Part shown: in pieces, positions 1 through 45,448 of the stretch
Position numbering within the stretch: position 1 is the first letter of the stretch
Layout: every line of letters starts with the position of its first letter
NCBI GenBank assembly: GCA_012729455.1
Contig: JAAYDC010000014.1
Location: 100,692 to 164,691 of the forward strand
Source of the DNA: Chloroflexota bacterium
GTDB lineage: Bacteria; Chloroflexota; Anaerolineae; UBA1429
DNA length: 64,000 nucleotides
Reading direction: 5' to 3'
Translations under genes and position numbers: made by a program
The notes under the pieces: generated by a model
Told to the model about the DNA's origin: nothing
Databases searched by the model: none
The model's input: the letters and a program-made list of their open reading frames with translations, nothing else

Positions 1-1038
1 CTTGGCATAATAGGTCTTGAGCACAGCTCCGAACATCTGCTGAGGTGACTTGCAGGTGGATAGATTATCCAGAAAGTCCGGATAATTCATCTCGCAGTAG
101 CGGATCCATCCCGGAGAGCAAGAGGTGATCATGGGAAGAGTTCCTCCCGTGTTCAACCTGTTCAACAACTCTGTGCCTTCCTCCATGATGGTCAGGTCCG
201 CACTAAAGTTGGTATCGAATACCTTGTCAAAGCCAATTCTTCTCAGGGCTGCCATCATCTTGCCGGTGACAGGGGTTCCCACGGGAAGTCCAAACTCCTC
301 GCCCAGAGATGCTCTCACTGCCGGAGCAGTCTGCACGACGACAAACTTGTCCGGATCCTGGATGGCTTCCCAAACCTGATCGATGTATGACTTTTCTCTG
401 AGGGCGGCAACAGGGCAGGCGTGTATGCACTGACCGCAGTAAATGCAATTCACATCTCTCATGCTGTAATCAAAGGCCGGCGCCACCTCTGTATTAAAGC
501 CTCTCTTGGTAAAGTCTAAAACGCCGATTCCCTGTACATCCCTACAGGTGCTAATACATCTGCCGCAGAGGATGCATTTTGAAGAGTCCCGGATAATGGA
601 ATACGAGAGATCGTCTATGACGGCCTTTCTCGTAGCACCTTTATAGGGAACATCATCAATTCCCAGCTCTCTGCAAAGCTTTTGCAGCTCACAAGTCCCG
701 CTTCTTTTACACGTGAGGCATTCACGGTTGTGATTAGCCAGAATCAACTCAACGTTTTGGCGCACCGCCTTCCGGACTCGGGCAGTATTGGTTCTTACAT
801 TCATGCCTTCTTGAACCTGTAGCACGCAAGATGCCGGCAGGTTCCTCATAGGAACACCGTTCACATCCGCTTCCACAACGCAGACCCTGCAAGCGGCGAT
901 TTCGTTAACGCCCTTTAAATAGCAAAGGGTGGGAATATCGACGCCCGCCTCCTTTGCCGCCAACTGTACAGTATAGTTCTTGGGGACGCTGACGGCAATC
1001 CCGTTAATTGTCACATTGACTTTTTGAACACTATCCAT
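1..1038 (-). CDS. hydA: [FeFe]-hydrogenase catalytic subunit (HydA/HndD-like); N-terminal ~345 aa only, 3' end runs off the window
   Basis: Reverse-complement translation from ATG at 1036-1038 gives MDSVQKVNVTINGIAVSVPKNYTVQLAAKEAGVDIPTLCYLKG...CRVCVVE. This is a 2Fe-2S ferredoxin N-domain, followed by CxxCxxC 4Fe-4S motifs and an H-cluster motif TSCSPGW. The frame stays open to position 1. AGGATGGG Shine-Dalgarno 6 nt upstream. Not in the ORF track because it has no stop inside the window. Confidence 0.85.
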   Translation of the reverse strand, partial: MDSVQKVNVTINGIAVSVPKNYTVQLAAKEAGVDIPTLCYLKGVNEIAACRVCVVEADVNGVPMRNLPASCVLQVQEGMNVRTNTARVRKAVRQNVELILANHNRECLTCKRSGTCELQKLCRELGIDDVPYKGATRKAVIDDLSYSIIRDSSKCILCGRCISTCRDVQGIGVLDFTKRGFNTEVAPAFDYSMRDVNCIYCGQCIHACPVAALREKSYIDQVWEAIQDPDKFVVVQTAPAVRASLGEEFGLPVGTPVTGKMMAALRRIGFDKVFDTNFSADLTIMEEGTELLNRLNTGGTLPMITSCSPGWIRYCEMNYPDFLDNLSTCKSPQQMFGAVLKTYYAK

Positions 1039-1051
1039 ATTATCCCATCCT

Positions 1052-2911
1052 TTATTTCTTAATGATGGCGTTGAATCTGCAAGTATCCATACAGACACCG
1101 CATTTGATGCACTTGTCCTGATCGATGTGGTGCTGTTCTTTGACCGTGCCGGTAATGGCCTTGGCGGGACATTTTCTGGCACACGCGGTACAGCCTGTGC
1201 AGGCATCCGTAATAAAGTAGCTCAACAGAGCCTTGCATTTGCCGGTCGGGCACCTCTTGTCGACTACGTGAGCCACATACTCGTCTCTAAAGTGCTTCAT
1301 TGTGGACAGGACAGGGTTTGGTGCCGTCTGCCCCAGAGCGCAGAGAGATGTGTTTTTAATATTCTCTGCCAGGTCTTCCAGAATAGTCAGATCTTCTATG
1401 GTACCATTGCCTTGTGTGATCTTGTCCAGGATTTCCAGCATTCTCTTTGTTCCTTCGCGGCAAGGAGTACACTTTCCGCAGGATTCATCCACTGTGAAAT
1501 CCAGGAAGAACCGTGCAATGTCTACCATGCAGTTGTCTTCGTCCATGACAATCATTCCGCCGGATCCCATCATAAAACCAATGGCAACCAAATTATCGAA
1601 ATCGATGGGAGCATCCAGGTATTTCTGGGGGAGGCATCCGCCGGAAGGGCCGCCGGTCTGAACCGCCTTGAATTGCTTTCCATTGAGGCAATCCTGACCA
1701 ATGTCATAAATAACTTCCCTGAGGGTGATTCCCATAGGAACTTCTACCAGGCCCGTGTTATTGATCTTGCCGCCAAGAGCAAATACTTTGGTGCCCGGTG
1801 ATTTTTCCGTACCCATGGATTTAAACCATTCGGGGCCATTGAGAATAATTTTGGGGATATTGGCTAGGGTCTCTACGTTGTTGATGATCGTCGGCTTGCC
1901 CCAAAGCCCCTTGTTTGCCGGGAATGGAGGCTTGTTCCTGGACATGCCGCGCTTCCCTTCAATGGAAGCGATCAATGCCGTTTCTTCTCCGCATACAAAG
2001 GCACCGGCACCCAGCCTGATTTCAATATCAAAGTCAAAGCCGCTGCCAAAGATATTCTTACCAATAAAGCCCATATCTTTAGCTTGCTTGATGGCAATCT
2101 TTAGTCTTTCGACAGCGACAGGATACTCGGCTCTCACATAAATAAAGCCCTTTGAAGCACCGATGGCATATCCGCCGATAGCCATTGCTTCTAGAACGGA
2201 GTGAGGGTCACCTTCCAGAACGCTTCTATCCATAAATGCGCCCGGATCTCCCTCGTCAGCATTGCAGATAAAGTACTTTTGGTCTGCTTCGTTGGCTGCA
2301 GCAAAACTCCACTTTAATCCTGTAGGGAATCCCGCACCGCCCCTTCCTCTGAGACCGGAAGCCTTCATAAGATTGATTACATCCTGGGGAGTCATTGTGG
2401 TGACTGATTTAGCCAGGGCCTGATATCCATTAACGGCAATGTAATCGTTGATATCTTCCGGGTTGATTAAACCGCAGTTTTGGAGGACGATTCGCTTTTG
2501 CTTTTTATAGAACTGCAAATCGTTGAGGCTCTTGAGCTTGCCGTTTTCATCTTCGCCGATGGTGTATTCCACCACAGGCTTACCTTTTACCAAGTGCTCA
2601 GAAACGACTCTAGAAACCCGGTCGGGATCCATGTGGATATAGGTAACCTTTTCCTCGTCATGTTCAAAGACCTCGACAATAGGTTCGTATATACACATGC
2701 CGATGCAGCCTGTGGGCATGACCTGAACATTGTCCAGCCCCGCCGCGGCTACTTGTTTCTTTAACGTATCTAAAACCAGCTTTGCTCCGGCAGAAATTCC
2801 GCAGGTGGCCATTCCCACGACGATGCGTCTGCCCTCAGTGGCTTCAAGATTCTTTACAGCATTGGCTTTCAGTTGGTTTAATTCATTGATACTGTTGTTC
2901 ATCTGCGCCAC
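1052..2911 (-). CDS. hydB: NADH-binding flavoprotein subunit of bifurcating [FeFe]-hydrogenase (NuoF-like, HydB/HndC). Has an N-terminal thioredoxin-like 2Fe-2S domain, an FMN/NADH core and C-terminal 2x[4Fe-4S] ferredoxin domains
   Basis: 619 aa. NuoF-like motifs GRGGAGFPTG and the 51-kDa subunit 4Fe-4S motif ESCGKCTPCREG. C-terminal CTGCTACARKCP and CIKCGVCMDTC ferredoxin motifs. Confidence 0.9.
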   Translation of the reverse strand: MAQMNNSINELNQLKANAVKNLEATEGRRIVVGMATCGISAGAKLVLDTLKKQVAAAGLDNVQVMPTGCIGMCIYEPIVEVFEHDEEKVTYIHMDPDRVSRVVSEHLVKGKPVVEYTIGEDENGKLKSLNDLQFYKKQKRIVLQNCGLINPEDINDYIAVNGYQALAKSVTTMTPQDVINLMKASGLRGRGGAGFPTGLKWSFAAANEADQKYFICNADEGDPGAFMDRSVLEGDPHSVLEAMAIGGYAIGASKGFIYVRAEYPVAVERLKIAIKQAKDMGFIGKNIFGSGFDFDIEIRLGAGAFVCGEETALIASIEGKRGMSRNKPPFPANKGLWGKPTIINNVETLANIPKIILNGPEWFKSMGTEKSPGTKVFALGGKINNTGLVEVPMGITLREVIYDIGQDCLNGKQFKAVQTGGPSGGCLPQKYLDAPIDFDNLVAIGFMMGSGGMIVMDEDNCMVDIARFFLDFTVDESCGKCTPCREGTKRMLEILDKITQGNGTIEDLTILEDLAENIKNTSLCALGQTAPNPVLSTMKHFRDEYVAHVVDKRCPTGKCKALLSYFITDACTGCTACARKCPAKAITGTVKEQHHIDQDKCIKCGVCMDTCRFNAIIKK

Positions 2912-2912
2912 C

Positions 2913-3458
2913 TCACTCTCTGTACTTATTAAGAATCGCTGAAATAACGCTTACGTCATCCAGTTTCCCGTATACGGTATCGTCGATCATGATGACCGGG
3001 GCCAGGCCGCAACACCCCAGACAACGGGTGGCATCGAGAGTGAACAAACCATCTTGGGTGGTTTCACCCACACCAACCCCCAATTCCTCGACGACCTTGT
3101 CCATAACTTTTTGAGCCCCTCTTACATAGCATGCCGTACCGAGACAAACTCCGACATGATGCTTGCCCCTCGGTTTAATGGCAAACTGGCTATAGAACGT
3201 CGCGATTCCATAGAGCTCTGCGATGGGGACGCCAATGTTCTCGGAAATAAACTTCTGAACCTCAAGAGGGAGGTATCCGAATATTCTCTGTGCCTCTTGA
3301 AGCACTGTCATAGTAATACCTTCGGAACCTTTGACAGAGTCGATATACGCTTTTAATTCCGCATATCTCTCGTCATTAGCTCTGTCACAGTTGCATCCGC
3401 AGTCATTTTGCATTTTACAAATCTCCTTTATTACTTGTGACAATGCTTGGTAAATCAA
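2913..3458 (-). CDS. hydC: NuoE-like [2Fe-2S] subunit of bifurcating hydrogenase (HydC/HndA)
   Basis: 181 aa. Thioredoxin-like 2Fe-2S motif region GVCLGTACYVRGAQ ... CLGCCGLAPV. Stop abuts the hydB start by 2 nt. Confidence 0.85.
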   Translation of the reverse strand: MIYQALSQVIKEICKMQNDCGCNCDRANDERYAELKAYIDSVKGSEGITMTVLQEAQRIFGYLPLEVQKFISENIGVPIAELYGIATFYSQFAIKPRGKHHVGVCLGTACYVRGAQKVMDKVVEELGVGVGETTQDGLFTLDATRCLGCCGLAPVIMIDDTVYGKLDDVSVISAILNKYRE

Positions 3459-3622
3459 TCATGATCTTGAACAACATTGCCTCCGATAATCCCTATCATA
3501 CAGCAAAAAACGGGCAGCCAATGATTGCCTGTGTAAAAATTGGCTTACCCGTACTCGTACGCTACATACACAGGGCTCGCACCCCTATGCAATAAAACAT
3601 GAAAACGCAAGTCTCCTGACTC

Positions 3623-3660
3623 AGGATAGGGAGGTAAAACTATCTCCTGAGAACCTATCC
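3623..3660. other. Perfect 8-bp inverted repeat hairpin (aggatagg ... cctatcct) in the AT-richer leader upstream of hydC
   Basis: Read directly: aggatagggaggtaaaactatctcctgagaacctatcct. An adjacent GNRA-type hairpin (agcc gaaa ggct) lies ~40 nt away. Probably part of a structured 5' UTR or a Rho-independent terminator of an upstream gene. Confidence 0.3.
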
Positions 3661-4129
3661 TACCTTTTTATAGGCGGCTTACTCCTCAATGGAAGCCTTT
3701 CGGCTCACATCAGGTCTCCCTGATGCTTTGGCAGATCCTCACGTCTACAGCGCCGGTTACGTTGGGTTTTGCCAACTGAATGGCACACCCACCCCATCTT
3801 CGCACCTGCCTGGCCTTTCAGCAAGTACGAAAGGACCATATAGTTTTTTACACGGATAAATGTCTCTATCCGGGATTCCTGAAAAGGTAGAACCACCACC
3901 CTCCGGGTCTCGATTCTACAAGTCTCCAGCCATTTGTCAAGACTGTCAACATGATTTTAGCGCCGGAACGCTGCCCTCTTTCTGGAGAGCAAATTGTCTA
4001 AAGCCGTCCGCACAAAAGGGATAGATGAGAGGACGCGGTGTACGTTGCGCAAAGGACTCGCCAGCCGCCATGCGCGCATCCGCGCATACTGTCAGCACGG
4101 CGCCGTTGCGCGCCTTGCTCTCGCAGCGC

Positions 4130-5482
4130 TCAGTTTCCGTTGGCGACGCTGTCGGCACCGAGGATCAGGATCAGGTCGACATCCGAGGTCTCGCCGGCAA
4201 AGGTGCGCACATTTTCGGGAAAGACCCCATATTCCTGCACCAGGAATTCGAGGGTATAGGGCTTGTCGTTATAGACCACGATGGTGGTCTGAGGCTGGTC
4301 AAAATCCGAGACCGTATCATAGCGGATCACATTAAAGCCCCTTTCGCGCAGTGCCAAAGTTTGAGCCTCGCCCAGGGCATCCACTCCGCTGCCATTACGC
4401 AGCTCGATGCGGGCAGCCTCGGCAGCGATCTGGCTGCGCGTCGGGTCGGGGGTACTATCCAGAGGGGTCGAGTTGGGGAACAACTCCGTCACTAAAGCGT
4501 ACACCTTGTCCCAATCGGCCTGCTGCACCATTGCACCAGTCTGTGTGGTCACAGATCTGGTCATGGTTTCGTCGATCTGGGCGGTCCGCAGGTTGTCTTT
4601 GCTCAAGCTGCGTGCCATCTCGGCCAGTGCGATCATCTCACGCAGGTTCAGGTCGGTGACGATCGAATCGCCCGCCAGCTTGACCAGCCCCGGGATAGAC
4701 GAGAGCGGGATATTGAGCGAGAGCACCTTATCGCGGATCGCCATGATTACCTGCTGCTGACGCTCCATGCGGTTAAAATCGTTTGAATCATGCCGCGTAC
4801 GAGCATACTCGAGGGCACGTTTGCCATCCAGCTGCTGAATGCCCGGCTGGAACTCGACCGTATAGGTGCCATAGTTGTTATCAGGGTAGGCACTATCGTA
4901 AATATGGCGCGGCACATCGATCGTAATGCCGCCAATAGCATCCACCATCTTCTCAAAGCCGGTAAAGTTGATGCGCATGAAATAGTGCACTGGCACACCC
5001 AGGGCTTCCTGCACCGTCAGTTTGGCCAAAGCCGGCCCGCCGCCGGGGTAGTGGTAGAAATCGCCCAGGGAATGCGCGGCGTTGATGCGATTTTCGCCAT
5101 ACCCCGGTATCTTGACCCACAAATCGCGCGGGATCGACAAAAGCGACGCCTTGTTGGTGGAGGGGTCAATGGAAAAAAGCATCATCGTGTCCGAGCGCCA
5201 GGGACCTGCTTCGCCCTCACGCTGGTCGATGCCCAGCAGCAGTACATTGACGGGTTCTTTTTTGGCGACCACATCGGGCAGCTCGTGCGCGGGGGCGCGC
5301 CCTGGGATCGCGTTCGGGTCGTTGAGGATCGGGATAAGCGGCAGCGAGGTGTTCGCAACCACCGCCTTGACGGTCGAGAAGAACAGATAACCGCTATAGA
5401 TCGCGCCGGATAGCAAGACCACCATCATAAACGAAACCAGCGCTCGGCGCGCACTGTGCGCGAAACTGGATCTTGCTCCCAT
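4130..5482 (-). CDS. LytR-CpsA-Psr (LCP) family cell-envelope glycopolymer transferase with an N-terminal TM anchor and C-terminal LytR_C-like domain
   Basis: 450 aa. TM helix FMMVVLLSGAIYSGYLFF. LCP-core-like LLLGIDQRE...RSDTMMLFSIDP...SIPRDLWV...YARTRH. Confidence 0.85.
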   Translation of the reverse strand: MGARSSFAHSARRALVSFMMVVLLSGAIYSGYLFFSTVKAVVANTSLPLIPILNDPNAIPGRAPAHELPDVVAKKEPVNVLLLGIDQREGEAGPWRSDTMMLFSIDPSTNKASLLSIPRDLWVKIPGYGENRINAAHSLGDFYHYPGGGPALAKLTVQEALGVPVHYFMRINFTGFEKMVDAIGGITIDVPRHIYDSAYPDNNYGTYTVEFQPGIQQLDGKRALEYARTRHDSNDFNRMERQQQVIMAIRDKVLSLNIPLSSIPGLVKLAGDSIVTDLNLREMIALAEMARSLSKDNLRTAQIDETMTRSVTTQTGAMVQQADWDKVYALVTELFPNSTPLDSTPDPTRSQIAAEAARIELRNGSGVDALGEAQTLALRERGFNVIRYDTVSDFDQPQTTIVVYNDKPYTLEFLVQEYGVFPENVRTFAGETSDVDLILILGADSVANGN

Positions 5483-5615
5483 CTCTGCCCTTTATCATCC
5501 GTCTTTATCGACTAGTATAGCACACTGCCCGGCGCCTACCAACATTAGCAGTGATTGCAGAACCAGTCGCTATATTTTATACTGAAAATCTATCTGATTT
5601 GTTCCAAGGAACGCC

Positions 5616-7277
5616 GTGTTGCCTCAGGGATTGCTGCTGGCTGGCCGCTACCTGGTGATTGAGTGGGCTGGCCGTGACGGCCTAACCGAAGTCTACCGCG
5701 CCTGGGATTCGCTCCTGGGCACACCGGTGCGCCTTGAAGCACTGCCAGCGGCCCCCCAGGGGATTGCCCCCGCGCGTTGGGCGCAGCAACTAGCCTCCAT
5801 GCGCACCGAAGCCGAATTGGGCGCCCAGCTGCAGCATCGCGGGCTGGTGGAGGTTACGGGGCTCGTCCGTAGTGCCTCTGGTGATTATGTGCTAGTACGC
5901 AAAGACTATGCCGGCGCCAGCCTGGCCGACGAACTGCATTCAGGGCGTACCCTGCCGGCTATGCAGACGACCTCAGTCTTTCGCCAGGTCTGCAGCACAC
6001 TGCGGGCGATCTCAGCCACCGGCATGCTGAACGGCCGCCTGGAAGCCGGCAGCATCTGGCTGAGCGGTGAGCGTGTCCGCCTGACCAGCCTGGGCGCCAG
6101 CCTGCGGCCTGCCCCCGTACGGTCCGCCTCAGAACCATGGCCGGCGGGGCTCAACAGCGACCCAGCAGCCGAGGCCAGCCTCGTGCAGCAGATCGGCCGC
6201 CTGATGGTCGCCACGCTGACTGGCAATCCCTGCCACGGGCAACCTCTGGCGCTGCGGCCGCGCGCACTCAATAGCATCATCGAATGCGCCCTCGGGCAGC
6301 ACGGAAGGGCCTATCGCGGCTTGGCAGAGCTCGAGCATGACCTGTATGCGATGGAGAATGAGTCGCCGCGTGCCGAAGTCGCCATGCTGTGGCAGCGTGC
6401 CCCGGTTGCCGCGCGGATTGGGATCAGCGTCCTGCTGATCGTGCTCCTGCTGGGGGCTGGGCTGGTCCTCAGCCAAGGCTGGAACAGGCTGCACGCCTTG
6501 GATGCCGCGCCAGTGTCGGCCACCCCCACATATACTCTGGCCTGGCCGGTTGTGCACACCGACGCGCACGGCGATAAGGACACAGGAAGCTTGCCAGTTC
6601 GTGATGCACGCGACACCTATGAGCCCGACGAGGGACATGCGGCGCTGCTTCAGCCCGGCGTGCAGCAGGCGCATACCTTTTACCCGCAAGGGGATACCGA
6701 CTGGGTGATGTTCCCGGTCCAGCGCGGCTGGACCTATATGCTGCAGGCGATTAACCAGGGTGACGCGCAGATCCAGCTGGACGTGAACGATGGGGCGCAA
6801 AACTGGCAGGGAATCTCGCCCGCGGCGGGCCAAAACGCGCTGGTTACGCTGATACCCTCTCAGGATAGCACCGCCCTGGTAAAGGTCAGCGCTCTGGGCA
6901 CCTTTGGCGAGGGCAGTGCCTTTGTGCTTTACTTGACGGAATTTCCGCCCGATAGCGCGCCACCCGCCCCTGAGCCCACCCGTGAGATCGTTGCCCAGCC
7001 GACGCGCACCCCGCGCCCGGTGATGACTCCGCTGCCCACAGCACCGCGTGCCACTGCAGCGCCAGGGGTCACAAGCGCGCCGGCAACCACCCGTACAGCG
7101 CAGATCAGCGCAACCCCGAAGCCCTCGCTCACGCCTACCCGCACGCGCACACCGCGCCTGACGCGCAGTGCCACCCTCAGCCGCACGCCCACCATTACGC
7201 CAACCCCGACGCCCTCGCTCACGCCTACCTCTACCGATACGCCCGTGCCCAGCACGCGCGAATCGGTGGTGCCCTGA
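5616..7277 (+). CDS. Membrane pseudokinase. Has a degenerate Hanks-type Ser/Thr kinase-like N-domain, one TM helix, an extracytoplasmic domain and a Pro/Thr-rich tail
   Basis: GTG start. Kinase-like order: GRYLVIEWAGRDGLTEVYRA (degenerate Gly loop), VRLEAL where VAIK is expected (no catalytic Lys), no HRD Asp, SLG where DFG is expected. TM helix IGISVLLIVLLLGAGLVL. Tail TPTPTPSLTPTSTDTPVPSTR. Confidence 0.6.
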   Translation: MLPQGLLLAGRYLVIEWAGRDGLTEVYRAWDSLLGTPVRLEALPAAPQGIAPARWAQQLASMRTEAELGAQLQHRGLVEVTGLVRSASGDYVLVRKDYAGASLADELHSGRTLPAMQTTSVFRQVCSTLRAISATGMLNGRLEAGSIWLSGERVRLTSLGASLRPAPVRSASEPWPAGLNSDPAAEASLVQQIGRLMVATLTGNPCHGQPLALRPRALNSIIECALGQHGRAYRGLAELEHDLYAMENESPRAEVAMLWQRAPVAARIGISVLLIVLLLGAGLVLSQGWNRLHALDAAPVSATPTYTLAWPVVHTDAHGDKDTGSLPVRDARDTYEPDEGHAALLQPGVQQAHTFYPQGDTDWVMFPVQRGWTYMLQAINQGDAQIQLDVNDGAQNWQGISPAAGQNALVTLIPSQDSTALVKVSALGTFGEGSAFVLYLTEFPPDSAPPAPEPTREIVAQPTRTPRPVMTPLPTAPRATAAPGVTSAPATTRTAQISATPKPSLTPTRTRTPRLTRSATLSRTPTITPTPTPSLTPTSTDTPVPSTRESVVP

Positions 7278-7278
7278 A

Positions 7279-7488
7279 TCAGGATTCGTCAGGCGGCAGT
7301 ACCTGCAGTTGGGTAACCTTTAGTTCAGCCTTATCGAGCTCAGCCTCGCAATACTGTGAAATCCGAATGCCTTCTTCGTAGAGTGCCAGCATCTCTTCCA
7401 GAGGGTGCTGACTGCTATCCAGGGCTTGAACAATACTTTCCAGCCGGCGGTAACCCGCCTCAAAGCTCTCAATCTGCTTCTTTTTCAT
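7279..7488 (-). CDS. xseB: Exodeoxyribonuclease VII small subunit
   Basis: 69 aa MKKKQIESFEAGYRRLESIVQALDSSQHPLEEMLALYEEGIRISQYCEAELDKAELKVTQLQVLPPDES. Stop of xseA is 1 nt upstream. The rest of the 239-aa track ORF is antisense junk. Confidence 0.8.
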   Translation of the reverse strand: MKKKQIESFEAGYRRLESIVQALDSSQHPLEEMLALYEEGIRISQYCEAELDKAELKVTQLQVLPPDES

Positions 7489-7489
7489 A

Positions 7490-8698
7490 TCAGGGCTCCT
7501 TAGGCTCTGTGCGGGTAACACTCGCTTGGGCGGTGCCATCAGCCAGGCGTAAGGTGATAGCCTCCGGCGGGACCAGCTGGCTGATGCTGGTAACCAGCGC
7601 CTGCGATTCGCCTTTGTAGACCAGTGCATAGCCGCGCTCGAGGACGTGCTGTACATCCAGAGAACGCAGCTGCTGGATGCTGACCTGCAGGCGCTGGCGT
7701 TGGAGCGCCAGGTAGTTGGCCATGGAGGCCTCGGCGCGTTGGCGCAACATATCGACTTGCTGGCGCTGTTCCTGCATCCGCCGCAGCGGATTGTGCACCG
7801 CCAGGGCACGCTGCTCGCGCCTGACGAGCTCGCGCCAGCCAGCCAGGTTGCGGGTGACCATCTCGTCCAGCATGCCGCGTAATTGCTCCAGACGCCCGCT
7901 GATTTGTACCAGGTCAGGTACGGCTGCCACAGCCGCTGCGGTGGGCGTGGGGGCGCGATAGTCAGCTGCATAGTCGATGATCGTGAAATCGGTATCATGC
8001 CCGACTCCCGAAATAACCGGCGTGGGCGAGTTGGCTACAGCACGCACCACGGCTTCGTCGTTAAAAGCCCACAGGTCCTGCGGCGACCCGCCGCCACGTG
8101 CCACGATGATCACATCGCACAGGCCTGTGGCGTTCAGGGCGTTTAGTGCCGCCACGATAGCGGCTGGCGCCTCATCACCCTGCACGGCGCTGTGCGCCAG
8201 GATCACCTCGACCAGCGGGTTGCGCTGCCGCAGCACATTGAGGATATCCTGCCAGGCTGCTCCCGATTCAGAGGTTACCACCCCGATGCGCCGCGGCCAG
8301 GCGGGCAGGGCGCGCTTGCGTTCCTCGGCAAAGAGCCCTTCAGCCTCGAGGCGCTCTTTGATCGCCATGAACTGCGCCCACAACCTCCCCAGACCGCCGT
8401 GCAGTAACTGATCAACGCGCAGCTGATAGTAGCCCCCGCCGAGATAGACGGTGATGCTGCCGTGGGCTTCGGCCAGGTCGCCGGGTTGCGGCGCCCAGGT
8501 CAGACGCGCCGCCTGCTGGCGCCAGATCACGCAGCGCAGCGATGAAGCCTGGTCTTTGAGGGTAAAGTAGATGTGTCCCGCGCTGGCACGCTTAAAATCG
8601 CTGATTTCTCCGGCGACCCACAGGTCCTCAAAGACACCTGAGCCCTCAAGCGCCTCTTTGATATAGCCGTTCAGCTGCTCGACAGTGAACATTTTCAT
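7490..8698 (-). CDS. xseA: Exodeoxyribonuclease VII large subunit
   Basis: OB-fold N-terminus (IYFTLKD, RCVIWR), then the catalytic domain (GVVTSESGAA, IIVARGGGS, ISGVGHDTDFT). Start chosen at MKMFTVEQL; the track ORF extends 19 codons further. Confidence 0.85.
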   Translation of the reverse strand: MKMFTVEQLNGYIKEALEGSGVFEDLWVAGEISDFKRASAGHIYFTLKDQASSLRCVIWRQQAARLTWAPQPGDLAEAHGSITVYLGGGYYQLRVDQLLHGGLGRLWAQFMAIKERLEAEGLFAEERKRALPAWPRRIGVVTSESGAAWQDILNVLRQRNPLVEVILAHSAVQGDEAPAAIVAALNALNATGLCDVIIVARGGGSPQDLWAFNDEAVVRAVANSPTPVISGVGHDTDFTIIDYAADYRAPTPTAAAVAAVPDLVQISGRLEQLRGMLDEMVTRNLAGWRELVRREQRALAVHNPLRRMQEQRQQVDMLRQRAEASMANYLALQRQRLQVSIQQLRSLDVQHVLERGYALVYKGESQALVTSISQLVPPEAITLRLADGTAQASVTRTEPKEP

Positions 8699-8769
8699 GG
8701 CACTATTATAGCACAGCCGCACCTGGCCCAACATAGTTGACACCTCCTCGGGCACGTGTTAAGATGAGC

Positions 8770-8797: not shown

Positions 8798-9550
8798 ATG
8801 ACCTTTCTCAGTGCTTTATCCGCCATCGATAAATCCAGCGCAGTGCCCTATTACTACCAGCTGGCCGAGATCCTGCGACGGCAACTGGATAGCCGCGCTT
8901 CACGCGGCGAGGTACTGCAGTTGCCTTCTGAAAACGAACTGTCCGAGCATTTTGTCCTCTCGCGCGCCACGGTGCGCCACGCGCTGGATATCCTCGAGAC
9001 CGAGGGCTGGATCTATCGCCAAAAGGGCAAGGGCGCCTTTGCGCCTTTCCGGCGCGTGCAGCATGAGCTCACACAGCTGGTCTCGACCACCGAAGACATG
9101 CAGCGGCGCGGCTGGCCGCTCGAGACGCGGCTGTTGAGTTGCGAGCTGCTGCCCTCTCCTGCCTATGCTGCCGATGCGCTCGAGATTGGCCAAGAGACGG
9201 CCATCTACCGCTTGGAGCGCCTGCGGCTGGTGGATGGCGAGCCGCTCAGCCTGCAGATTTCGCACCTGCCGGCCAGCTTGTGCCCGGGACTCGAACAGCA
9301 TGCCGAAGCCGGCTCGCTCTACCGCCTGTTGGAAGAGCGCTATGCACTAAAGCTGTGGAATGCCCAAGAAGTGCTGCGCGCACGCCCGGTTTCTCCGTAT
9401 GAGGCTGATCTGCTCGACGTGCGCGAAGGAGCTTGCACGCTCTATATAGAACGGGTAACGTATAACACAGAAGGAATCCCGGTCGAGTACCTGGAGTCTG
9501 TCTGGCGCGGCGACCGTTACGACTTTACCGTACATCTCACCCGCAGTTGA
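8798..9550 (+). CDS. GntR/HutC-family transcriptional regulator (winged HTH plus UTRA effector domain)
   Basis: 250 aa. HTH LPSENELSEHFVLSRATVRHALDILETEGWIYRQKGKGAF. C-terminal UTRA-like domain. Confidence 0.85.
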   Translation: MTFLSALSAIDKSSAVPYYYQLAEILRRQLDSRASRGEVLQLPSENELSEHFVLSRATVRHALDILETEGWIYRQKGKGAFAPFRRVQHELTQLVSTTEDMQRRGWPLETRLLSCELLPSPAYAADALEIGQETAIYRLERLRLVDGEPLSLQISHLPASLCPGLEQHAEAGSLYRLLEERYALKLWNAQEVLRARPVSPYEADLLDVREGACTLYIERVTYNTEGIPVEYLESVWRGDRYDFTVHLTRS

Positions 9551-9568
9551 GCGCCTGAAGGAGGAAAC

Positions 9569-10546
9569 ATGAAGTTTTCGGCCAACATCAACACCTTTAA
9601 TGCCTGTGCCGACCGCTATGTGCTGAGCGGATACGGCGAACGCCTCGATTCAGACGCGCTGATCCGAGCCGCTACCCAGGTGCCCGATCTGACGGGCGTA
9701 GAGCTGGTGGGCATGTGGCACGTCAATGACAACAATGTCGAGCAACTGCGCCGCCAACTGGCCGATGTTAACCTGGCGGTTACCTGCATCACACCCGATA
9801 TCTGGGCTTCCAGCAAGTGGGGCTGGGGGTCATTTACGTCGCCTGACCCAGCCATCCGCGCGGATGCCATCCGTGAGGTGCAAAAATCGATGGGCTGGGC
9901 CAAGCAGATGAACTGCGATATCGTCGATCTGTGGTTTGGGCAGGATGGCTACGACTATCCCATGCAGGGCGACTACCAGACCGCATGGGATCGGATCATC
10001 GAGGGCACCATCGCCTGCGCCGAATATATGCCGGATATCAATCTGGTGATCGAGTACAAGCCCAAGGAACCGCGCACGCACTGTTATATCTCCACGGTCG
10101 GCAAGACGCTCTTGCTGATCGACAAGGTCAACAAGCCCAACGTGGGCGCCATGATCGACGTCGGCCACACTCTCCAAGCCTACGAGGATGCCGCCGAATC
10201 GGCCGCGCTGCTGGATTACTTTGGTAAAAAGCTGATGTACATGCACTTTAACGATAACTGGCGCCTGTGGGATGACGACATGACCGCCGGTTCGGTGCAC
10301 ACCATCGAGCTGCTGGAACTGCTCTACTGGCTCGACCACATCGGTTATGACGGCTGGTATGCGCTCGACATCTTCCCTTACCGCGAGGATGGCATCCGCG
10401 CCGCCACTGAGAGCATCAAGTGGATCCAGGGCCTCTACGGGCTGCTCGACAAGATCGGGCGCGATAATATCACCTCTGCTATTGAGCAGGGTGATGCTAT
10501 GCAGGTATCCAGCCTGGTAAGAACCGCTTTACTGGGCAATTCATAA
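9569..10546 (+). CDS. Xylose-isomerase-like TIM-barrel sugar (phosphate) isomerase/epimerase
   Basis: 325 aa. GAAGGAGG RBS. TIM-barrel sugar isomerase signatures (EYKPKEP, DVGH, HFNDN). Confidence 0.8.
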   Translation: MKFSANINTFNACADRYVLSGYGERLDSDALIRAATQVPDLTGVELVGMWHVNDNNVEQLRRQLADVNLAVTCITPDIWASSKWGWGSFTSPDPAIRADAIREVQKSMGWAKQMNCDIVDLWFGQDGYDYPMQGDYQTAWDRIIEGTIACAEYMPDINLVIEYKPKEPRTHCYISTVGKTLLLIDKVNKPNVGAMIDVGHTLQAYEDAAESAALLDYFGKKLMYMHFNDNWRLWDDDMTAGSVHTIELLELLYWLDHIGYDGWYALDIFPYREDGIRAATESIKWIQGLYGLLDKIGRDNITSAIEQGDAMQVSSLVRTALLGNS

Positions 10547-10557
10547 ACGCTGGAGGA

Positions 10558-11913
10558 ATGATGACCAAGCAACTGTACGACCCGCATATGTTTAACTATA
10601 TGTGGGAAAGCCTCGACCGCGACCGTTTTGTAGTAGGCACCTACTATATCGAAGATACCCTGGAAGGGGTCGATTTTATCGACCACCTTATGCAGGTGCA
10701 GCGCCTGGCGCTAGAGGGCTCGACTGCCAGCTGGATGGAAGTAAAGGAAGAGACCCCTGAAGTGCGTGAACGCCTCTCGAGCAAGGTTCTGAACTATTTA
10801 GAGATCCCCGCGTCCAAGGGCACAAAAAAAGCCATTGTGCAGCTGGCCTTTCCCATCGCTGCCTGGGAAGAGAACGTCAACGTGCCGATGATGCTGCTCT
10901 CGATCATGGGCAACATCCCGGCATTTACCAACAAGATGCGTATGCTCGATCTGTATGTGCCGCCGACGGTAGCCGCTAAACTGGGCGGACCCAAGTTCGG
11001 CATCCCCGATCTGCGCGAAAAGCTGGGCGTCTACGACCGCCCGCTCATACTGCAGATCATCAAACCCAAGATGGGCATGTCGCCCCAGGAGACGGCCGAC
11101 CAGGTCTACCAGACCGCTCTGGGCGGGGCTGACCTGTGCAAAGACGACGAGATGTGCTCCGAGCTCTCCAACTCGCGTTTTGAAGACCGCCTCGAGGCCG
11201 TGTTAAAGGCACTCGACAAGGCCGAAAAAGAGACCGGTCACAAGACCCTCTACATGGTGAGCATCACCGACGAGGCCGACCGAGTGGTCGAAAAGGCACG
11301 CCGTGCGGTAAAGCTGGGCGCCACAGGCCTCCTGTATGCCTACTCGGCAGGGCTTTCGTCGCTTAAGACGATCGCCAACGACCCCGAGATCAATGTGCCG
11401 ATCCTGCTGCACGTCTCGCACATGATGGCGCTCTTGCCCTCGATGAACTTTCCGGTGCTTTCAAAGCTGTGCCGTATGTGCGGCGCCGACATGATGCTCA
11501 CGCCTTCGATCTGGTCGAGCATCCCGGTGGCCTCGGCCGAAGAGTGCGGCCGTGTGGCGCAGACCCTGCAGGCACCCTTTTATAATCTAAAGCCCACCTG
11601 GCCGATGCCCGCCGCGGGCATGTATCCCGGCCTGATCGACGTGCTGATCCAGGAAAACGGCTTAGACTTTATCGTTCCGGCGGGTGGTGGTATGCTGGGG
11701 CATCCGATGGGCTACAAGGCCGGGGCCATGGCCTGGCGCCAGGCAATCGACGCCGTCACCAAGGATGGCATCAGCCTGCAGGAAGCCGCTCGCAAATACA
11801 AGGAATTTGGCGCCGCCGCCGAGCTATGGGGCATTCGCACCCGCCCGGTGACGCCGTGGGGGTATTCCGGGCCGGATTACCACCCCAAGTTCGCGCCCAA
11901 GAACCTGGGTTGA
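10558..11913 (+). CDS. RuBisCO large-subunit-like protein (RLP, form IV-like)
   Basis: 451 aa. IKPKMGMS matches the IKPKLG motif (K175/K177 equivalents). GGADLCKDDE matches GGLDFTKDDE (carbamylated-Lys/Asp/Glu metal site). PAGGGMLGHPMG matches the GG phosphate-binding loop. No small-subunit gene nearby. Confidence 0.8.
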   Translation: MMTKQLYDPHMFNYMWESLDRDRFVVGTYYIEDTLEGVDFIDHLMQVQRLALEGSTASWMEVKEETPEVRERLSSKVLNYLEIPASKGTKKAIVQLAFPIAAWEENVNVPMMLLSIMGNIPAFTNKMRMLDLYVPPTVAAKLGGPKFGIPDLREKLGVYDRPLILQIIKPKMGMSPQETADQVYQTALGGADLCKDDEMCSELSNSRFEDRLEAVLKALDKAEKETGHKTLYMVSITDEADRVVEKARRAVKLGATGLLYAYSAGLSSLKTIANDPEINVPILLHVSHMMALLPSMNFPVLSKLCRMCGADMMLTPSIWSSIPVASAEECGRVAQTLQAPFYNLKPTWPMPAAGMYPGLIDVLIQENGLDFIVPAGGGMLGHPMGYKAGAMAWRQAIDAVTKDGISLQEAARKYKEFGAAAELWGIRTRPVTPWGYSGPDYHPKFAPKNLG

Positions 11914-11979
11914 TCGCGTTTTATAACTGGTGCGCCCGCCGTATTGGGGCGCACCAGCATGTTCGTTAAGGGAGCGTGT

Positions 11980-12948
11980 ATGTCAGAGTTTTCATTGCTG
12001 GATATGTACCGCAAAATGCTGCTGATCCGCCGCTTTGAGGAGCGCTGCAACGAGCTGTATATGCAGGGGCGCATCCCATCGACGCTGCACCTCTACATCG
12101 GCCAGGAGGCTGTGGCAGTGGGCGCCTGTGCGCCATTGACGGATGCCGACTATCTTTTTAGTACCCATCGTCCGCACGGCCACGCCCTGGCCAAGGGCGT
12201 CAGCCCACGCTCGATCATGGCAGAGCTCTTTGCCAAGGTCACAGGCTGCTGCAAGGGCAAGGGCGGCTCGATGCACGTCGGTGATATGCGCGTCGGCATG
12301 TTCCCGGCTGTGGCGATCGTGGGAGCCAACATCCCGCTGGCGGCTGGCGCTGCCCTGGCGGCCAAGCGCCTGAACGACGGACGCGTGACAGCCTGCTTTT
12401 TCGGCGACGGAGCCGCCAACGAAGGCGCCTTCCATGAAGGCTTGAATATGGCGGCGATCTGGAAGCTGCCTGTAGTATATTTCTGCGAAAACAACCTCTA
12501 CGCCGCTTCCACGCCTTTCAGCACGGCGTTCAACATCAAGCAGGTGGCCGACCGCGCTGCCAGCTATGGCATCCCCGGGATCGTGGTGGATGGCTATGAC
12601 GTCGAGAGTGTGGCTGAGGTAGCTGAGGAAGCCTACAATCGCGCGCGCCGCGGCGACGGCCCCACTCTGGTGGAATGCATGACCTACCGCCTGTGCGGGC
12701 ATTCGCGCAGCGACCCGCGCACCTACCGCACCAAGGAAGAAGAGGCCGAGTGGCAAGCGCGTGACGTGATCCCAACTACCGCCTCGCGGCTGCTTGATCG
12801 CGGCCTGGCTACGCAGGAGCGCATCGACCAGTTCGAAGCGGAAGTCAAAGCCGAGATCGACGACGCGGTGCAGTTTGCCGAAGAGAGTCCTTATCCCGAA
12901 CCGCACGAACTGATGGAAGATATCTTTGCGCCGGAGGCTGCCCTATGA
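11980..12948 (+). CDS. TPP-dependent 2-oxoacid/acetoin dehydrogenase E1 alpha subunit
   Basis: TPP motif GDGAANEG...NN. High similarity to the PdhA/AcoA family. Start chosen at MSEF after the AAGGGAG RBS. Confidence 0.85.
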   Translation: MSEFSLLDMYRKMLLIRRFEERCNELYMQGRIPSTLHLYIGQEAVAVGACAPLTDADYLFSTHRPHGHALAKGVSPRSIMAELFAKVTGCCKGKGGSMHVGDMRVGMFPAVAIVGANIPLAAGAALAAKRLNDGRVTACFFGDGAANEGAFHEGLNMAAIWKLPVVYFCENNLYAASTPFSTAFNIKQVADRAASYGIPGIVVDGYDVESVAEVAEEAYNRARRGDGPTLVECMTYRLCGHSRSDPRTYRTKEEEAEWQARDVIPTTASRLLDRGLATQERIDQFEAEVKAEIDDAVQFAEESPYPEPHELMEDIFAPEAAL

Positions 12949-13958
12949 GCCAGATGAGTATTGCCCAAGCCCTGCGCCAGGCGATCCGCGAAGAGATGCT
13001 GCGCGACGAGCGCGTCTATTGCATCGGTGAGGATATCGGCGTCCCGGGCGGTTTTGGCGGCGCATTTACCGTCACGCTCGGGCTTTCGGACGAGTTCGGC
13101 CGCGAGCGCATCCTGGATACCCCCATTTCCGAGATCGGCCTGGCGGGCGTGGCGATCGGTTCGGCTTGTGCCGGCATGCGCCCGATCGCTGACGTGCAGT
13201 ATGGCGACTTTTTGTTCTGTATGATGGACCAGCTGGCCAACCAGGCGGCCAAGATGCGCTACATGTCGGGCGGCACGATCAAGGTACCGATGGTGATGCG
13301 CGCACCGGTGGGCTCGACAAGCCGCGGCGCTCAGCACGCCCAGAGCCTAGAGGCGTTTTTCACGCACATCCCTGGGTTAAAGGTCGTGGCGCCCGCCACC
13401 GCCTACGACGCCAAGGGACTGCTCAAGGCTGCCGTGCGCGATGATAACCCCGTGATCGTCTTTGAGCACAAGCTGCTGTATGGCAGCAAGGGTCCGCGTT
13501 CCGAGCGCGGCGCGCTCAGCCCGATCGGCGAGGTGCCGGATGACGACTATATCGTGCCGATTGGCAAGGGCATCATCCGCCGCAAGGGCAAAGATGTCAC
13601 CATCGTCGGCAAGCTGTTGACGCTTTACCGCGCCCTGGGAGCCGCCGATGAGCTTGCCAAAGAAGGCATCGAGGCCGAGGTGATCGACCCGCGCACCCTT
13701 GTTCCGCTGGATAAAGACCTGATCCTCGAATCGGTGCGCAAGACCGGCCGGCTGGTGATCGTCGAGGAAGATAACCTCACCGGCGGATGGGCCGGCGATA
13801 TTGCCGCCATCGTGGCCGAAGAGGCTTTCTACTGGCTGGACACGCCCATCAAACGCCTCTCGGCACCAGATGCGCCCGCGCCCTTTGCGCCAGTGCTCGA
13901 ACAGCTGTATGTTCCCAGCGTCGCAAACGTCGTGCAGGCCGTCAAGAGCCTCTTTTAG
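12945..13958 (+). CDS. 2-oxoacid/acetoin dehydrogenase E1 beta subunit (transketolase-like)
   Basis: 337 aa. PdhB/AcoB-like throughout. ATGA overlap with E1 alpha. Confidence 0.9.
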   Translation: MSQMSIAQALRQAIREEMLRDERVYCIGEDIGVPGGFGGAFTVTLGLSDEFGRERILDTPISEIGLAGVAIGSACAGMRPIADVQYGDFLFCMMDQLANQAAKMRYMSGGTIKVPMVMRAPVGSTSRGAQHAQSLEAFFTHIPGLKVVAPATAYDAKGLLKAAVRDDNPVIVFEHKLLYGSKGPRSERGALSPIGEVPDDDYIVPIGKGIIRRKGKDVTIVGKLLTLYRALGAADELAKEGIEAEVIDPRTLVPLDKDLILESVRKTGRLVIVEEDNLTGGWAGDIAAIVAEEAFYWLDTPIKRLSAPDAPAPFAPVLEQLYVPSVANVVQAVKSLF

Positions 13959-13969
13959 GGAGTGGTGAA

Positions 13970-15019
13970 ATGCCCAAGCAAGTGTTGGTGCCACCCCTCG
14001 GGACGACTGTCGATACCATCACGCTGGTCGAGTGGCTCAAACAGCCCGGCGAAGCCGTAACGCACGGCGAGCCGTTATTTGTGATCGAGACCGACAAGGC
14101 TAACCTGGATGTCGAGGCGCCCGCCACGGGCATTCTCACCCAGGTGAGCGCACAACCCGGTGACGAGTTGACCGCCCTGACGGTGATCGCGCTGATCGCC
14201 GAAGAGGGCGAGGCGCCGAAGACTCCTGCTCCTGCTACGGCATCCGCGCCCGCAGCCGAACCCGCGGAGGTTCAAGCCCCCGTTGCCAAGCCCGAACCGG
14301 CTGCCGCGGTATCTTCCAGTGCCCCAATCTGCCGTGAAAGGGTGTTCATTTCGCCGCGCGCCAGACGCCTGGCTGAGGCGCATAATGTGCCGATCGCAGG
14401 GCTGGTGGCAACCGGACCCGAGGGCGCCATCATCGAGCGGGATGTGCGCGCCTGGCTGGAGGCACATCCTGCGAGCATGCCGGCTGCGCCCGCTCAGACC
14501 GCTGTGTCAGCGCGTTATACGCTGCAGGCTGAGTTCGACCCGGCCGAATTGCTGGATTGGCAAGACGCCTTGCGTACCTCCAAGCGTCAACCCAGTATCC
14601 TGCAGGTGGTGTTGCTGACCGCCCTGAGAATGCTGGCGGCCGAACCGCTTAACGCGCCGGATGGCAGCGAACTGGGCCTGGCTATGGCTGAACTGAGCGA
14701 CACAGGCCTGCGCTACCGGCCGCTGCCGCTCGCGAGCGCCCTGAATATGGCAAGGCTGCAAAAAGTTTTAGAGACCGAGCCTCAGGAGGCATTTTCGCAG
14801 GGGATCGCCCTGCTGGATGCCGGCGCACTGGGGCTGGATGTGCTGACGCCGAGCGATGCGAGCGTGCCCATGATCAGCATCGGCCGCGTGCGGCGTGGGC
14901 GCCCCGCCTGGCTGAGCGTGAGTGCTGATCCGAGCGCGTTGAGTGCACTGCAGGCAGCCAGCTGGTTGGCACGGCTTGTCAACCTGCTGGATGATCCGCA
15001 GCAGGTATTAGCAATCTAA
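13970..15019 (+). CDS. E2-like lipoyl protein. Has a lipoyl domain, a peripheral-subunit-binding domain and a degenerate acyltransferase domain lacking the catalytic His
   Basis: Lipoyl motif IETDKANLDVEAP. PSBD RARRLAEAHNVPIAGLVATGPEGAIIERDV. Where E2 enzymes have ...SxDHRxxDGA the sequence reads LSVSADPSALSALQAAS, so His, Arg and Asp-Gly are lost. Start at ATG 13970 after the AGGGAGTGG RBS; the track ORF start at 13787 overlaps E1 beta and is rejected. Confidence 0.7.
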   Translation: MPKQVLVPPLGTTVDTITLVEWLKQPGEAVTHGEPLFVIETDKANLDVEAPATGILTQVSAQPGDELTALTVIALIAEEGEAPKTPAPATASAPAAEPAEVQAPVAKPEPAAAVSSSAPICRERVFISPRARRLAEAHNVPIAGLVATGPEGAIIERDVRAWLEAHPASMPAAPAQTAVSARYTLQAEFDPAELLDWQDALRTSKRQPSILQVVLLTALRMLAAEPLNAPDGSELGLAMAELSDTGLRYRPLPLASALNMARLQKVLETEPQEAFSQGIALLDAGALGLDVLTPSDASVPMISIGRVRRGRPAWLSVSADPSALSALQAASWLARLVNLLDDPQQVLAI

Positions 15020-15034
15020 CAAGGAGAAGGAATC

Positions 15035-16522: not shown

Positions 16523-17155
16523 CACCTGCAGGAGGCTACCTAGCAGTTAATCTGCGCAATTACGTGTTTCCGGATCATCTGCAGCCAAAGCATTCGGCCT
16601 TTTTAGGCTCTGTGGCACGCTGCTTTATGCCGCTGCCCGGTGGTGATGCCCCGCTGTGAACCGAGATTTTACCGGGGATCGAGATCACACGCATCACCGA
16701 TATAGCGCTGAAATCGACGTGTGTGCAGCCTAAAGAAATTCAGCAGCTTTAAAAATCGGACGCATGATCGGTACTTTGGTCGCCGTCATACAGGTGACCG
16801 TCTGGAGGGTATGCACTTTAGCGGTGCAAGAGCTCACCCGTACAACTGCCACGGCTGGGCTCCCAACGTGTGGCGGAGCGAGTGTGACGTACAACGGCGT
16901 GTAACCGGAACCGTGGTTGGCACGATGTATCATCCAAGCTTTGATGACCGCAAACTGCTTGTAGCGGCCAGGTGCAGCTTGCAGGGCGCGCTCCGGGGCT
17001 GATCATGCCATCGCCGTCGACCCGGTACAGCCCAGCGTGGGCGATGTGGTGCTGGGGCTCGATGAGAACGGCAGTGCCTGCACACTCACGGATATCGAAC
17101 CCGGCGGGGCGGTGCGCCCCGTTATAATTGGAATTGCGGACGAGGTGCAACTGAC

Positions 17156-17899: not shown

Positions 17900-17994
17900 C
17901 AGCCGGCTGAGCCCGAAACATTCGATGAGCAAGCCCCAGTGACCGCCATCACCGAGCAGATGATGTAACAGTCAAGTGGCGATAGGAGGATAAC

Positions 17995-43939: not shown

Positions 43940-43941
43940 TA

Positions 43942-45429: not shown

Positions 45430-45448
45430 ATCATCATCGTATAAGCAG

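Follow-up and report, generated by a model that had tools for sequence, protein, structure and literature searches.

Pseudokinases are defined at the sequence level as proteins with a kinase fold from which at least one of the catalytic Lys/Asp/Asp residues is missing (PMC12599244; bioRxiv 10.1101/2025.01.12.632604). Seven of the 42 bacterial serine/threonine kinase (STK) families are catalogued as such, namely ActPs1-3, GLW, CP1, DYD, and DLHK (bioRxiv 10.1101/2025.01.12.632604; PMC12599244), and in one of them, ActPs3 (MviN), the constraints lie mainly within the N-lobe (PMC12599244). Although catalogued, bacterial pseudokinases are almost unstudied by experiment (PMC12599244). The commonest architecture among bacterial STKs is that of a kinase domain, a transmembrane (TM) segment, and an ectodomain (bioRxiv 10.1101/2025.01.12.632604). 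The gene described here, located at 5616-7277 in a 64,000-nucleotide stretch of a Chloroflexota contig (JAAYDC010000014.1; the whole stretch is called the window below), encodes a membrane protein whose kinase-fold domain is devoid of all three catalytic residues and which thus falls within the above definition. With a probability of roughly 70%, it can be considered a catalytically dead receptor-type Hanks kinase kept by selection, most likely a non-catalytic membrane scaffold or receptor. An earlier, sequence-only reading of this DNA had regarded bacterial pseudokinases as rare, which is only partly right in view of the seven families out of 42.

Several described systems resemble this protein in some respects. 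The PASTA kinases (PknB/StkP, NF033483) carry PASTA repeats, for which it has no match (PF03793), having instead an ectodomain resembling the pre-peptidase C-terminal (PPC) domain; unlike them, it has lost its catalytic residues. ActPs3, i.e., the MviN (MurJ) pseudokinase of Mycobacterium, shares with it the degradation of three catalytic motifs, the envelope context, and the constraint on the N-lobe. However, ActPs3 is actinobacterial, fused to the MurJ flippase, without an ectodomain of its own, and marked by a deletion of ~40 residues in the activation loop, whereas the protein from the window is freestanding, with a TM helix and an ectodomain; the VALT and LSIDH-type motifs of ActPs3 (PMC12599244 Table 1) differ from its motifs as well. 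In the GLW family from Proteobacteria GLW replaces HRD and LLLL/W replaces VAIK, while here the corresponding motifs are NGR and VRLE, the phylum is another one, and the ectodomain is of the PPC type. CP1 is cytosolic and linked to a COG3899 ATPase domain, whereas the present protein has a TM helix and an ectodomain but no extra cytoplasmic domain. The EssB/YukC proteins of type VIIb secretion are similar in being single-pass membrane scaffolds that combine a dead kinase fold on the cytoplasmic side with an extracellular domain; the latter is a different one, no sequence relationship was detected, and no type VII secretion genes lie near the gene.

Membership in the GLW, ActPs3, CP1, or PASTA-kinase groups was rejected on the basis of motifs and architecture. 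Judged by its motifs, taxon, and predicted architecture, the clade to which the protein belongs fits none of the seven described pseudokinase families. No MurJ, FHA, or PP2C gene was found among the 41 open reading frames (ORFs) of the window scanned against Pfam, and a hidden Markov model scan of all ORFs detected no other kinase in the window.

Layout of the Protein and Its Kinase-Fold Domain

The gene starts with GTG, preceded by a ribosome-binding site, AAGGAA, at 5606-5611, and ends with TGA at 7275-7277; its product has 553 amino acids. The same or almost the same protein is deposited as NLV74141.1, annotated as 'hypothetical protein [Chloroflexi bacterium]'. A Hanks-kinase fold is followed in it by a TM helix, a linker, a β-sandwich ectodomain, and a Pro/Thr-rich tail (Table 1). 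Hydropathy reveals one strong segment, in agreement with the single TM helix noticed earlier. The absence of a signal peptide, the single TM helix, and the analogy to receptor STKs place the N-terminal kinase-fold domain most probably in the cytoplasm and the PPC-like domain and the tail outside the cell. The extracytoplasmic domain had been estimated at ~180 residues; an ectodomain is indeed present, but the extracytoplasmic part has ~170 residues, of which ~40 form a linker of low model confidence preceding the eight-stranded domain.

The homology of the N-terminal part to kinases is documented in several ways. When PDB sequences were searched with phmmer, StkP came out best (E = 6.5e-5), followed by PknG, PLK3, and ULK1. 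A Pkinase profile search had been proposed as a check: the Pfam Pkinase match is sub-threshold (E = 0.058, 13.2 bits against a cut-off of 31.7), as is that of PK_Tyr (E = 0.003), while the NCBIfam model PknB_PASTA_kin (NF033483) matches residues 5-131 with E = 3.3e-8, although with 33 bits against a cut-off of 450. In an exhaustive search of representatives, full-length matches tie the protein to bona fide kinases, P0038 (E = 8.5e-20) and P0044 (E = 5.5e-19). The AlphaFold2 (AF2) model built with a multiple sequence alignment (MSA) predicts a bilobal kinase fold, is confident in both the kinase-like domain and the ectodomain, and yields kinases throughout the results of both fold searches; single-sequence AF2 modelling of the full-length protein was uninformative, with a predicted local distance difference test score (pLDDT) of 38. 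The Hanks order of the ~260 N-terminal residues is thus supported by the alignment to StkP, the family alignment, and the NCBIfam match.

The loss of motifs is extensive. The Gly loop (GxGxxG, GEGGFG in the alignments) is replaced by AGRDGL at residues 18-23, and VAIK by VRLE, with Glu41 at the position of the catalytic Lys. The catalytic loop HRDxKxxN (HRDIKPSN) reads NGRLEAGS and has kept none of its His, Arg, Asp, Lys, and Asn residues, the HRD Asp being replaced by Arg and the Asn by Ser. Instead of DFG there is SLG at residues 158-160, with Ser in place of the Asp. The activation segment is shortened, the P+1/APE segment (GTPxYxxPE, in the alignments GTPAYKSPEQ) is deleted, and the αF Asp is lost; of the conserved kinase residues only the αC Glu (E65) is kept. 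The sole Lys among residues 1-260 is K96, near the hinge. The register of these motifs was taken from alignments to StkP, to the family members, and to PknB, with which the canonical family members agree. In all of them the motif losses reported earlier hold: kinase-fold matches were found, and no conserved Lys or Asp had been misplaced. The description of the protein as a freestanding membrane pseudokinase is therefore fully supported: none of the three catalytic residues is left on the kinase fold, one TM helix is present, and an ectodomain and a Pro/Thr tail complete the layout.

Ectodomain and Tail

For residues 328-443 the representative search found hundreds of matches to extracellular modules that are repeated in large surface proteins. 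The ectodomain motif is D-x-Y-E-P-D-[DE] ... G-D-x-D-[RW]-V-x-F ... A-G-x-x-Y, of which the protein keeps D-x-Y-E-P-D-E and G-D-x-D-W, and eight strands are present in its model. The Pfam PPC domain (PF04151) is matched by 16 of the 32 aligned homologous ectodomains, with a best E of 4e-12, and by P0020 at 5.5e-31. The ectodomain itself gives no PPC match at E<=0.01, and among PDB sequences a profile search with it found nothing and a single-sequence search only chance matches. Because of the matches of its homologues, including P0020, and the eight predicted strands, we call it a divergent PPC-like β-sandwich. It resembles PPC in the D-x-Y-E-P-[DN] and G-D-x-D-W motifs and in the predicted β-sandwich of about eight strands; it differs in being attached to a receptor of the kinase type and not to a secreted peptidase, and the acidic GVDT and NDD motifs conserved in the family are absent from it and from its dead relatives.

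PilN-domain proteins (type IV pilus assembly; P0037, P0051) carry this PPC-like ectodomain as a fusion, and surface proteins of very large size contain up to 12 copies of it. As an extracellular module it seems to be in wide use.

The tail, residues 456-553, contains 26 Thr and 20 Pro among its 98 residues. An 18-nucleotide (nt) direct repeat had been reported in its coding sequence at ~7123 and ~7207. The repeat is real, with exact copies at 7122-7139 and 7212-7229, although the second lies 5 nt away from the reported position, and it can be extended to 29 nt, 28/29 of them identical, the copies being in frame and 90 nt apart (Table 1). Shuffling the codons of the tail 500 times gave repeats of 17 nt at most, and 29 nt were reached in none of the 500. 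The repeat is a genuine duplication within a linker of low complexity, ordinary for such tails; Tandem Repeats Finder detected no tandem array in the tail. The tails of the protein (S-T-R-E-S-V-V-P, 7251-7274) and of its JAJFUJ orthologue P0004 (S-V-R-E-T-V-V-P) end alike, and those of other family members end in P-x-[RK]-x-x-G-P-like motifs; a conserved C-terminal signal is possible.

A Family with Graded Loss of Catalytic Residues

The kinase-TM-PPC-like-Pro/Thr tail architecture is common to 14 proteins that form a family in Anaerolineae: the protein from the window, the JAJFUJ protein (P0004 completed with an N-terminus from L006, the two contigs overlapping by 46 residues), P0006, P0262-P0266, P0058, P0109, P0141, P0038, P0122, and P0044. 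P0044 and P0122 have canonical kinase motifs, and in P0038 CFG replaces DFG. P0141, P0109, and P0058 retain HRDxxxxN, with the Lys and the DFG Asp lost. In P0006 and P0262-P0266 the Lys is replaced by Ala, and HRD by HGA, HSA, or HST, except for P0264 with HGD..N; at the position of the DFG Asp, P0262-P0266 have Gly, and P0006 has Phe or a retained Asp, depending on the alignment. The protein from the window and the JAJFUJ protein are the most degenerate, with NGR and NGM, respectively, and Glu at the Lys position. Together with P0006 and P0262-P0266 they form the dead clade, in which at least eight lineages carry intact ORFs of 550-590 codons.

The canonical members are 52-55% identical in the N-lobe, 53-59% in the C-lobe, and 39-48% in the ectodomain. 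For the HRD-retaining members without the Lys the values are 18-35% in the N-lobe and 40-55% in the C-lobe. In the dead trio they are 22-35% in the N-lobe and 27-36% in the C-lobe, and the ectodomain, at 33-48%, is the best conserved part. The family was not reached by every search: no relative was detected when the GTDB representatives were scanned with the protein alone, a word-index homologue search with its full length returned only itself, the low-complexity tail having probably swamped the candidates, and a second homologue search with the family alignment returned mostly generic kinases.

The convergent genes of exonuclease VII, xseB and xseA, are located downstream in nine of the 12 distinct family loci, including that of the canonical P0122, and the dead gene is therefore a positional orthologue of the active kinases. 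In the lineage of the protein the ATP-binding and catalytic residues were most likely lost stepwise, along with the conserved acidic motifs of the ectodomain.

Selection on the Dead Domain

Between the window, L003, and L005 the gene is 30-34% identical and its neighbours 53-92% (the LytR-CpsA-Psr (LCP) gene 73%, xseA 53%, GntR 69-71%, and the genes of the RuBisCO-like protein (RLP) and E1b 90-92%), which makes it the fastest-evolving gene of the syntenic block. The ratio of nonsynonymous to synonymous substitution rates (dN/dS) was calculated by the Nei-Gojobori method among P0006, P0262, P0263, and P0264, which belong to the sister subclade. It is 0.16-0.32 for the whole gene, 0.11-0.17 for the N-lobe, 0.19-0.38 for the C-lobe, 0.13-0.34 for the ectodomain, and 0.24-0.34 for the tail, compared with 0.07-0.09 for LCP and 0.11-0.54 for xseB. 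In the sister subclade purifying selection thus clearly acts on the dead kinase domain, although the constraint is 2-4 times more relaxed than that on LCP. This argues that the kinase-shaped domain has a function other than catalysis.

The protein would then be unable to phosphorylate and would act non-catalytically as a membrane scaffold or receptor. Its cytoplasmic kinase-shaped domain may bind a partner, with the TM helix serving as the anchor, and the PPC-like ectodomain with the Pro/Thr tail could contact the envelope or an extracellular or wall component. Other membrane pseudokinases of bacteria, among them the MviN-type ActPs3 and EssB/YukC, would be parallels for this.

Several points weigh against such an explanation. 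The MSA used by AF2 held kinases and PPC domains, so that the predicted fold is a partly circular confirmation, and the protein reaches neither the Pkinase nor the PPC threshold of Pfam. Some pseudokinases without the three residues still bind nucleotides, and the loss of ATP binding presumed here should be read in that light. The residues of the PknB back-to-back dimer are not clearly kept, since, by comparison with PknB, R10 has a conserved equivalent, L33 varies, and D76 is aligned to a gap; PknB-type dimerisation cannot be asserted from the alignment. Finally, the dN/dS values concern the P0006 sister subclade, the sequenced relatives of the protein's own lineage all being nearly identical.

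The LCP Neighbour

As the sequence-only reading had stated, the divergently transcribed neighbour encodes an LCP protein, with matches to LytR_cpsA_psr PF03816 (1.7e-43), TIGR00350 (2.3e-37), and LytR_C (8.4e-6) and with an N-terminal hydrophobic segment; it is 73-79% identical to the products of the LCP genes of L003 and L006. The intergenic region contains two promoter-like elements: that of the LCP gene (minus strand) consists of TTGGTA at 5542-5537, a 17-nt spacer, and TG-n-TATACT at 5519-5514, and that of the pseudokinase gene (plus strand) of TTGCAG at 5555-5560, a 17-nt spacer, and TATACT at 5578-5583. Their -35 boxes are ~12 bp apart. The TATACT -10-like boxes are conserved for both directions, TTGCnn-17-TATACT is present upstream of the pseudokinase in three of three genomes, and the AGTATAGCACAC box of the intergenic region is conserved. 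This arrangement would fit two independent back-to-back promoters, and no palindromic operator was seen in the intergenic region.

In the window the LCP gene (-) is followed by the divergent pseudokinase (+), the convergent xseB and xseA (-), and then by GntR/UTRA, AP_endonuc_2, RuBisCO-like, and 2-oxoacid dehydrogenase E1/E2 genes. The same order is repeated for P0006 (L003/L004), JAJFUJ (L005+L006), and P0264, P0262, and P0263 (L092-L095). The divergent pair occurs in all six dead-clade loci with a readable upstream part: the window, L003/L004, L005+L006, L092, L093, and L094. Testing the co-conservation of the pair in related genomes had been proposed as a check. When 185,579 GTDB species representatives were pattern-scanned with the LCP protein, 80 loci with LCP homologues were obtained, and only the JAJFUJ locus among them has a kinase-like ORF within ~6 kb. 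The other 79 (L007-L085), including the 24 closest near-full-length ones (L007-L030, 39-57% identity), have none within that distance, and the closest have YkuD, PMT-like, or Bac_transf neighbours. LCP adjacency is also absent at the loci of the other six family members. FeoB/HTH genes lie upstream of P0109, FeoAB genes upstream of P0141, and LeuRS upstream of the canonical P0122; upstream of P0058 there is a GT2-GT2-Bac_transf operon, and the LCP orthologue of that genome is ~2.5 Mb away. Since the six loci are syntenic on both flanks, LCP adjacency represents one evolutionary event; it is a single-clade trait, not distinguishable from inherited synteny.

A cell-envelope regulatory pair had been proposed on the basis of this gene arrangement. 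The two proteins would be dedicated partners, with the pseudokinase scaffolding or gating, for instance, the attachment of glycopolymers to peptidoglycan, and with both genes co-regulated from the shared intergenic region. The proposal agrees with the adjacency in six of six readable dead-clade loci, with the back-to-back promoter-like elements and their conserved -10 boxes, and with the presence in both products of one membrane span and extracytoplasmic domains. In another genome P0058, an orthologue that retains HRD, is divergent from a glycopolymer operon, and the gain of LCP adjacency coincides with the full catalytic loss. Nevertheless, the proposal is rather unlikely: the adjacency, found in the one syntenic clade, is not replicated in independent lineages, neither in the 79 other LCP loci nor at the FeoAB- or LeuRS-adjoining loci of the family, the two genes do not form an operon, LCP evolves 2-4 times more slowly without a coupled pattern being seen, and the widely conserved neighbour is the convergent xseB-xseA rather than LCP. 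A more specific version, in which the receptor kinase became a non-catalytic envelope module on becoming the divergent partner of LCP, so that the dead domain would scaffold the cytoplasmic machinery for polyprenol-linked glycopolymers and the PPC-like ectodomain with the tail would position LCP at the wall, is speculative and carries a still lower probability.

The LCP orthologue of the P0058 genome (L017, 4244-5692, minus strand) is divergent from a TMEM260/PMT_2-like O-mannosyltransferase homologue, with Bac_transf nearby. This PMT-like neighbour may bear on the glycosylation of Ser/Thr/Pro-rich surface tails.

Drift or Atypical Activity

Another explanation is that of a decaying gene, i.e., a former kinase without function drifting toward pseudogenisation. 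It would account for the gene being the fastest-evolving of its block (30-34% versus 53-92% identity), for the loss of motifs in both the kinase domain and the ectodomain, and for the annotation as a hypothetical protein. However, the intact ORFs in at least eight diverged lineages, the confidently predicted fold of both domains, and the conservation of the ribosome-binding site and promoter-like elements speak against it, and the dN/dS of 0.16-0.32, with the dead N-lobe as the most constrained part, largely refutes drift; this explanation is very improbable. An active atypical kinase with relocated catalytic residues, WNK-like or CASK-like, is the least probable of all, for although E65 is retained, the sister member P0264 keeps HGD..N, and atypical active 'pseudokinases' are known (PMC12599244), the Gly loop, β2, and β3 contain no Lys, K96 as the only one in the domain is near the hinge, the two catalytic Asp and the catalytic-loop Asn are replaced by Arg or Ser, the activation and P+1 segments are deleted, and Glu at the Lys position would be expected to repel the phosphates of ATP.

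Other Features of the Window

The coordinates of the pseudokinase gene, its parts, and its immediate neighbours are presented in Table 1.

Table 1. Features of the pseudokinase locus in the 64-kb window.
Feature	Position	Strand	Basis
LCP (LytR-CpsA-Psr) glycopolymer ligase with LytR_C, membrane-anchored, divergent neighbour	4130..5482	-	Pfam/NCBIfam
Divergent intergenic region with back-to-back promoter-like elements	5483..5615	.	consensus scan
Whole pseudokinase gene	5616..7277	+	ORF, start/stop, ribosome-binding site
Pseudokinase domain, residues 1-258	5616..6389	+	alignments, profile matches, predicted model
Single TM helix, residues 268-286, IGISVLLIVLLLGAGLVLS	6417..6473	+	hydropathy peak 2.7; AF2 continuous helix, residues 264-295
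Extracytoplasmic linker, residues 287-327, ~40 aa, predicted disordered	6474..6596	+	pLDDT 36-58; least conserved segment
Ectodomain, residues 328-443, ~115 aa, divergent PPC-like, predicted 8-strand β-sandwich	6597..6944	+	homologue profile matches; pLDDT ~92
C-terminal Pro/Thr-rich low-complexity tail, ending STRESVVP	6945..7274	+	composition, alignment
Direct repeat copy 1, 29 nt, encodes TPKPSLTPT	7111..7139	+	sequence comparison
Direct repeat copy 2, 28/29 identical, encodes TPTPSLTPT	7201..7229	+	sequence comparison
xseB, exonuclease VII small subunit, convergent	7279..7489	-	Pfam; stop 1 nt from pseudokinase stop
xseA, exonuclease VII large subunit	7490..8755	-	Pfam

The tail-to-tail arrangement of the (pseudo)kinase gene with xseB-xseA is seen at 7275-7281 in the window, at 9764-9767 in L003, and in L086, L087, L090, and L092-L094.

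On the other side of the LCP gene, the content of GC in positions 1-3500 of the window falls to 0.47-0.51 over a NuoF-like gene (1052-2911, minus strand) and a NuoE-like gene (2913-3458, minus strand), compared with ~0.60 elsewhere. These two genes are only 45-55% identical to their counterparts in L003, and the DRTGG, CBS-HATPase, and PHP genes located between the NuoE-like and LCP genes in L003 and L092 are missing from the window. This suggests that positions 1-3500 represent a replaced or rearranged segment. The gap of ~670 bp at 3459-4129, which separates the NuoE-like gene from the 3' end of the LCP gene, coincides with the GC shift and contains only overlapping ORFs of up to 70 codons; it has no Rfam match, and no RNA family was found by Rfam in the window as a whole.

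Beyond xseA, a conserved cluster at 8798-18759 comprises genes of GntR/UTRA, an AP_endonuc_2 TIM barrel, the RLP, 2-oxoacid dehydrogenase E1a/E1b/E2, an FGGY kinase, a class II aldolase, and an SDR. The RLP (10558-11913) is 90-92% identical across three genomes; compared with L003, the E2 ORF is 37% and E1b 91% identical. The cluster looks like an RLP-associated pathway of sugar or sulfur-sugar catabolism. Two long ORFs, 40799-44143 (minus strand, 1114 residues) and 18756-20777 (minus strand, 673 residues), have no Pfam match at E<=1e-5, and the former abuts the gene of a protein with four LysM domains (43942-45474, minus strand).

Significance

None of the seven described pseudokinase families comes from Chloroflexota or has an ectodomain of the PPC type. 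The practical significance of the locus is modest, as the organism is uncultured and no phenotype is available. Should the hypothetical functional tie to LCP be true, it would suggest that glycopolymer attachment is organised in a new way in monoderm-like Chloroflexota. What the locus adds to the catalogue is a receptor-type pseudokinase specific to its lineage, with purifying selection on the dead domain that can be measured. Since active, half-dead, and dead orthologues share one chromosomal position, the family is useful for studying the origin of pseudokinases.

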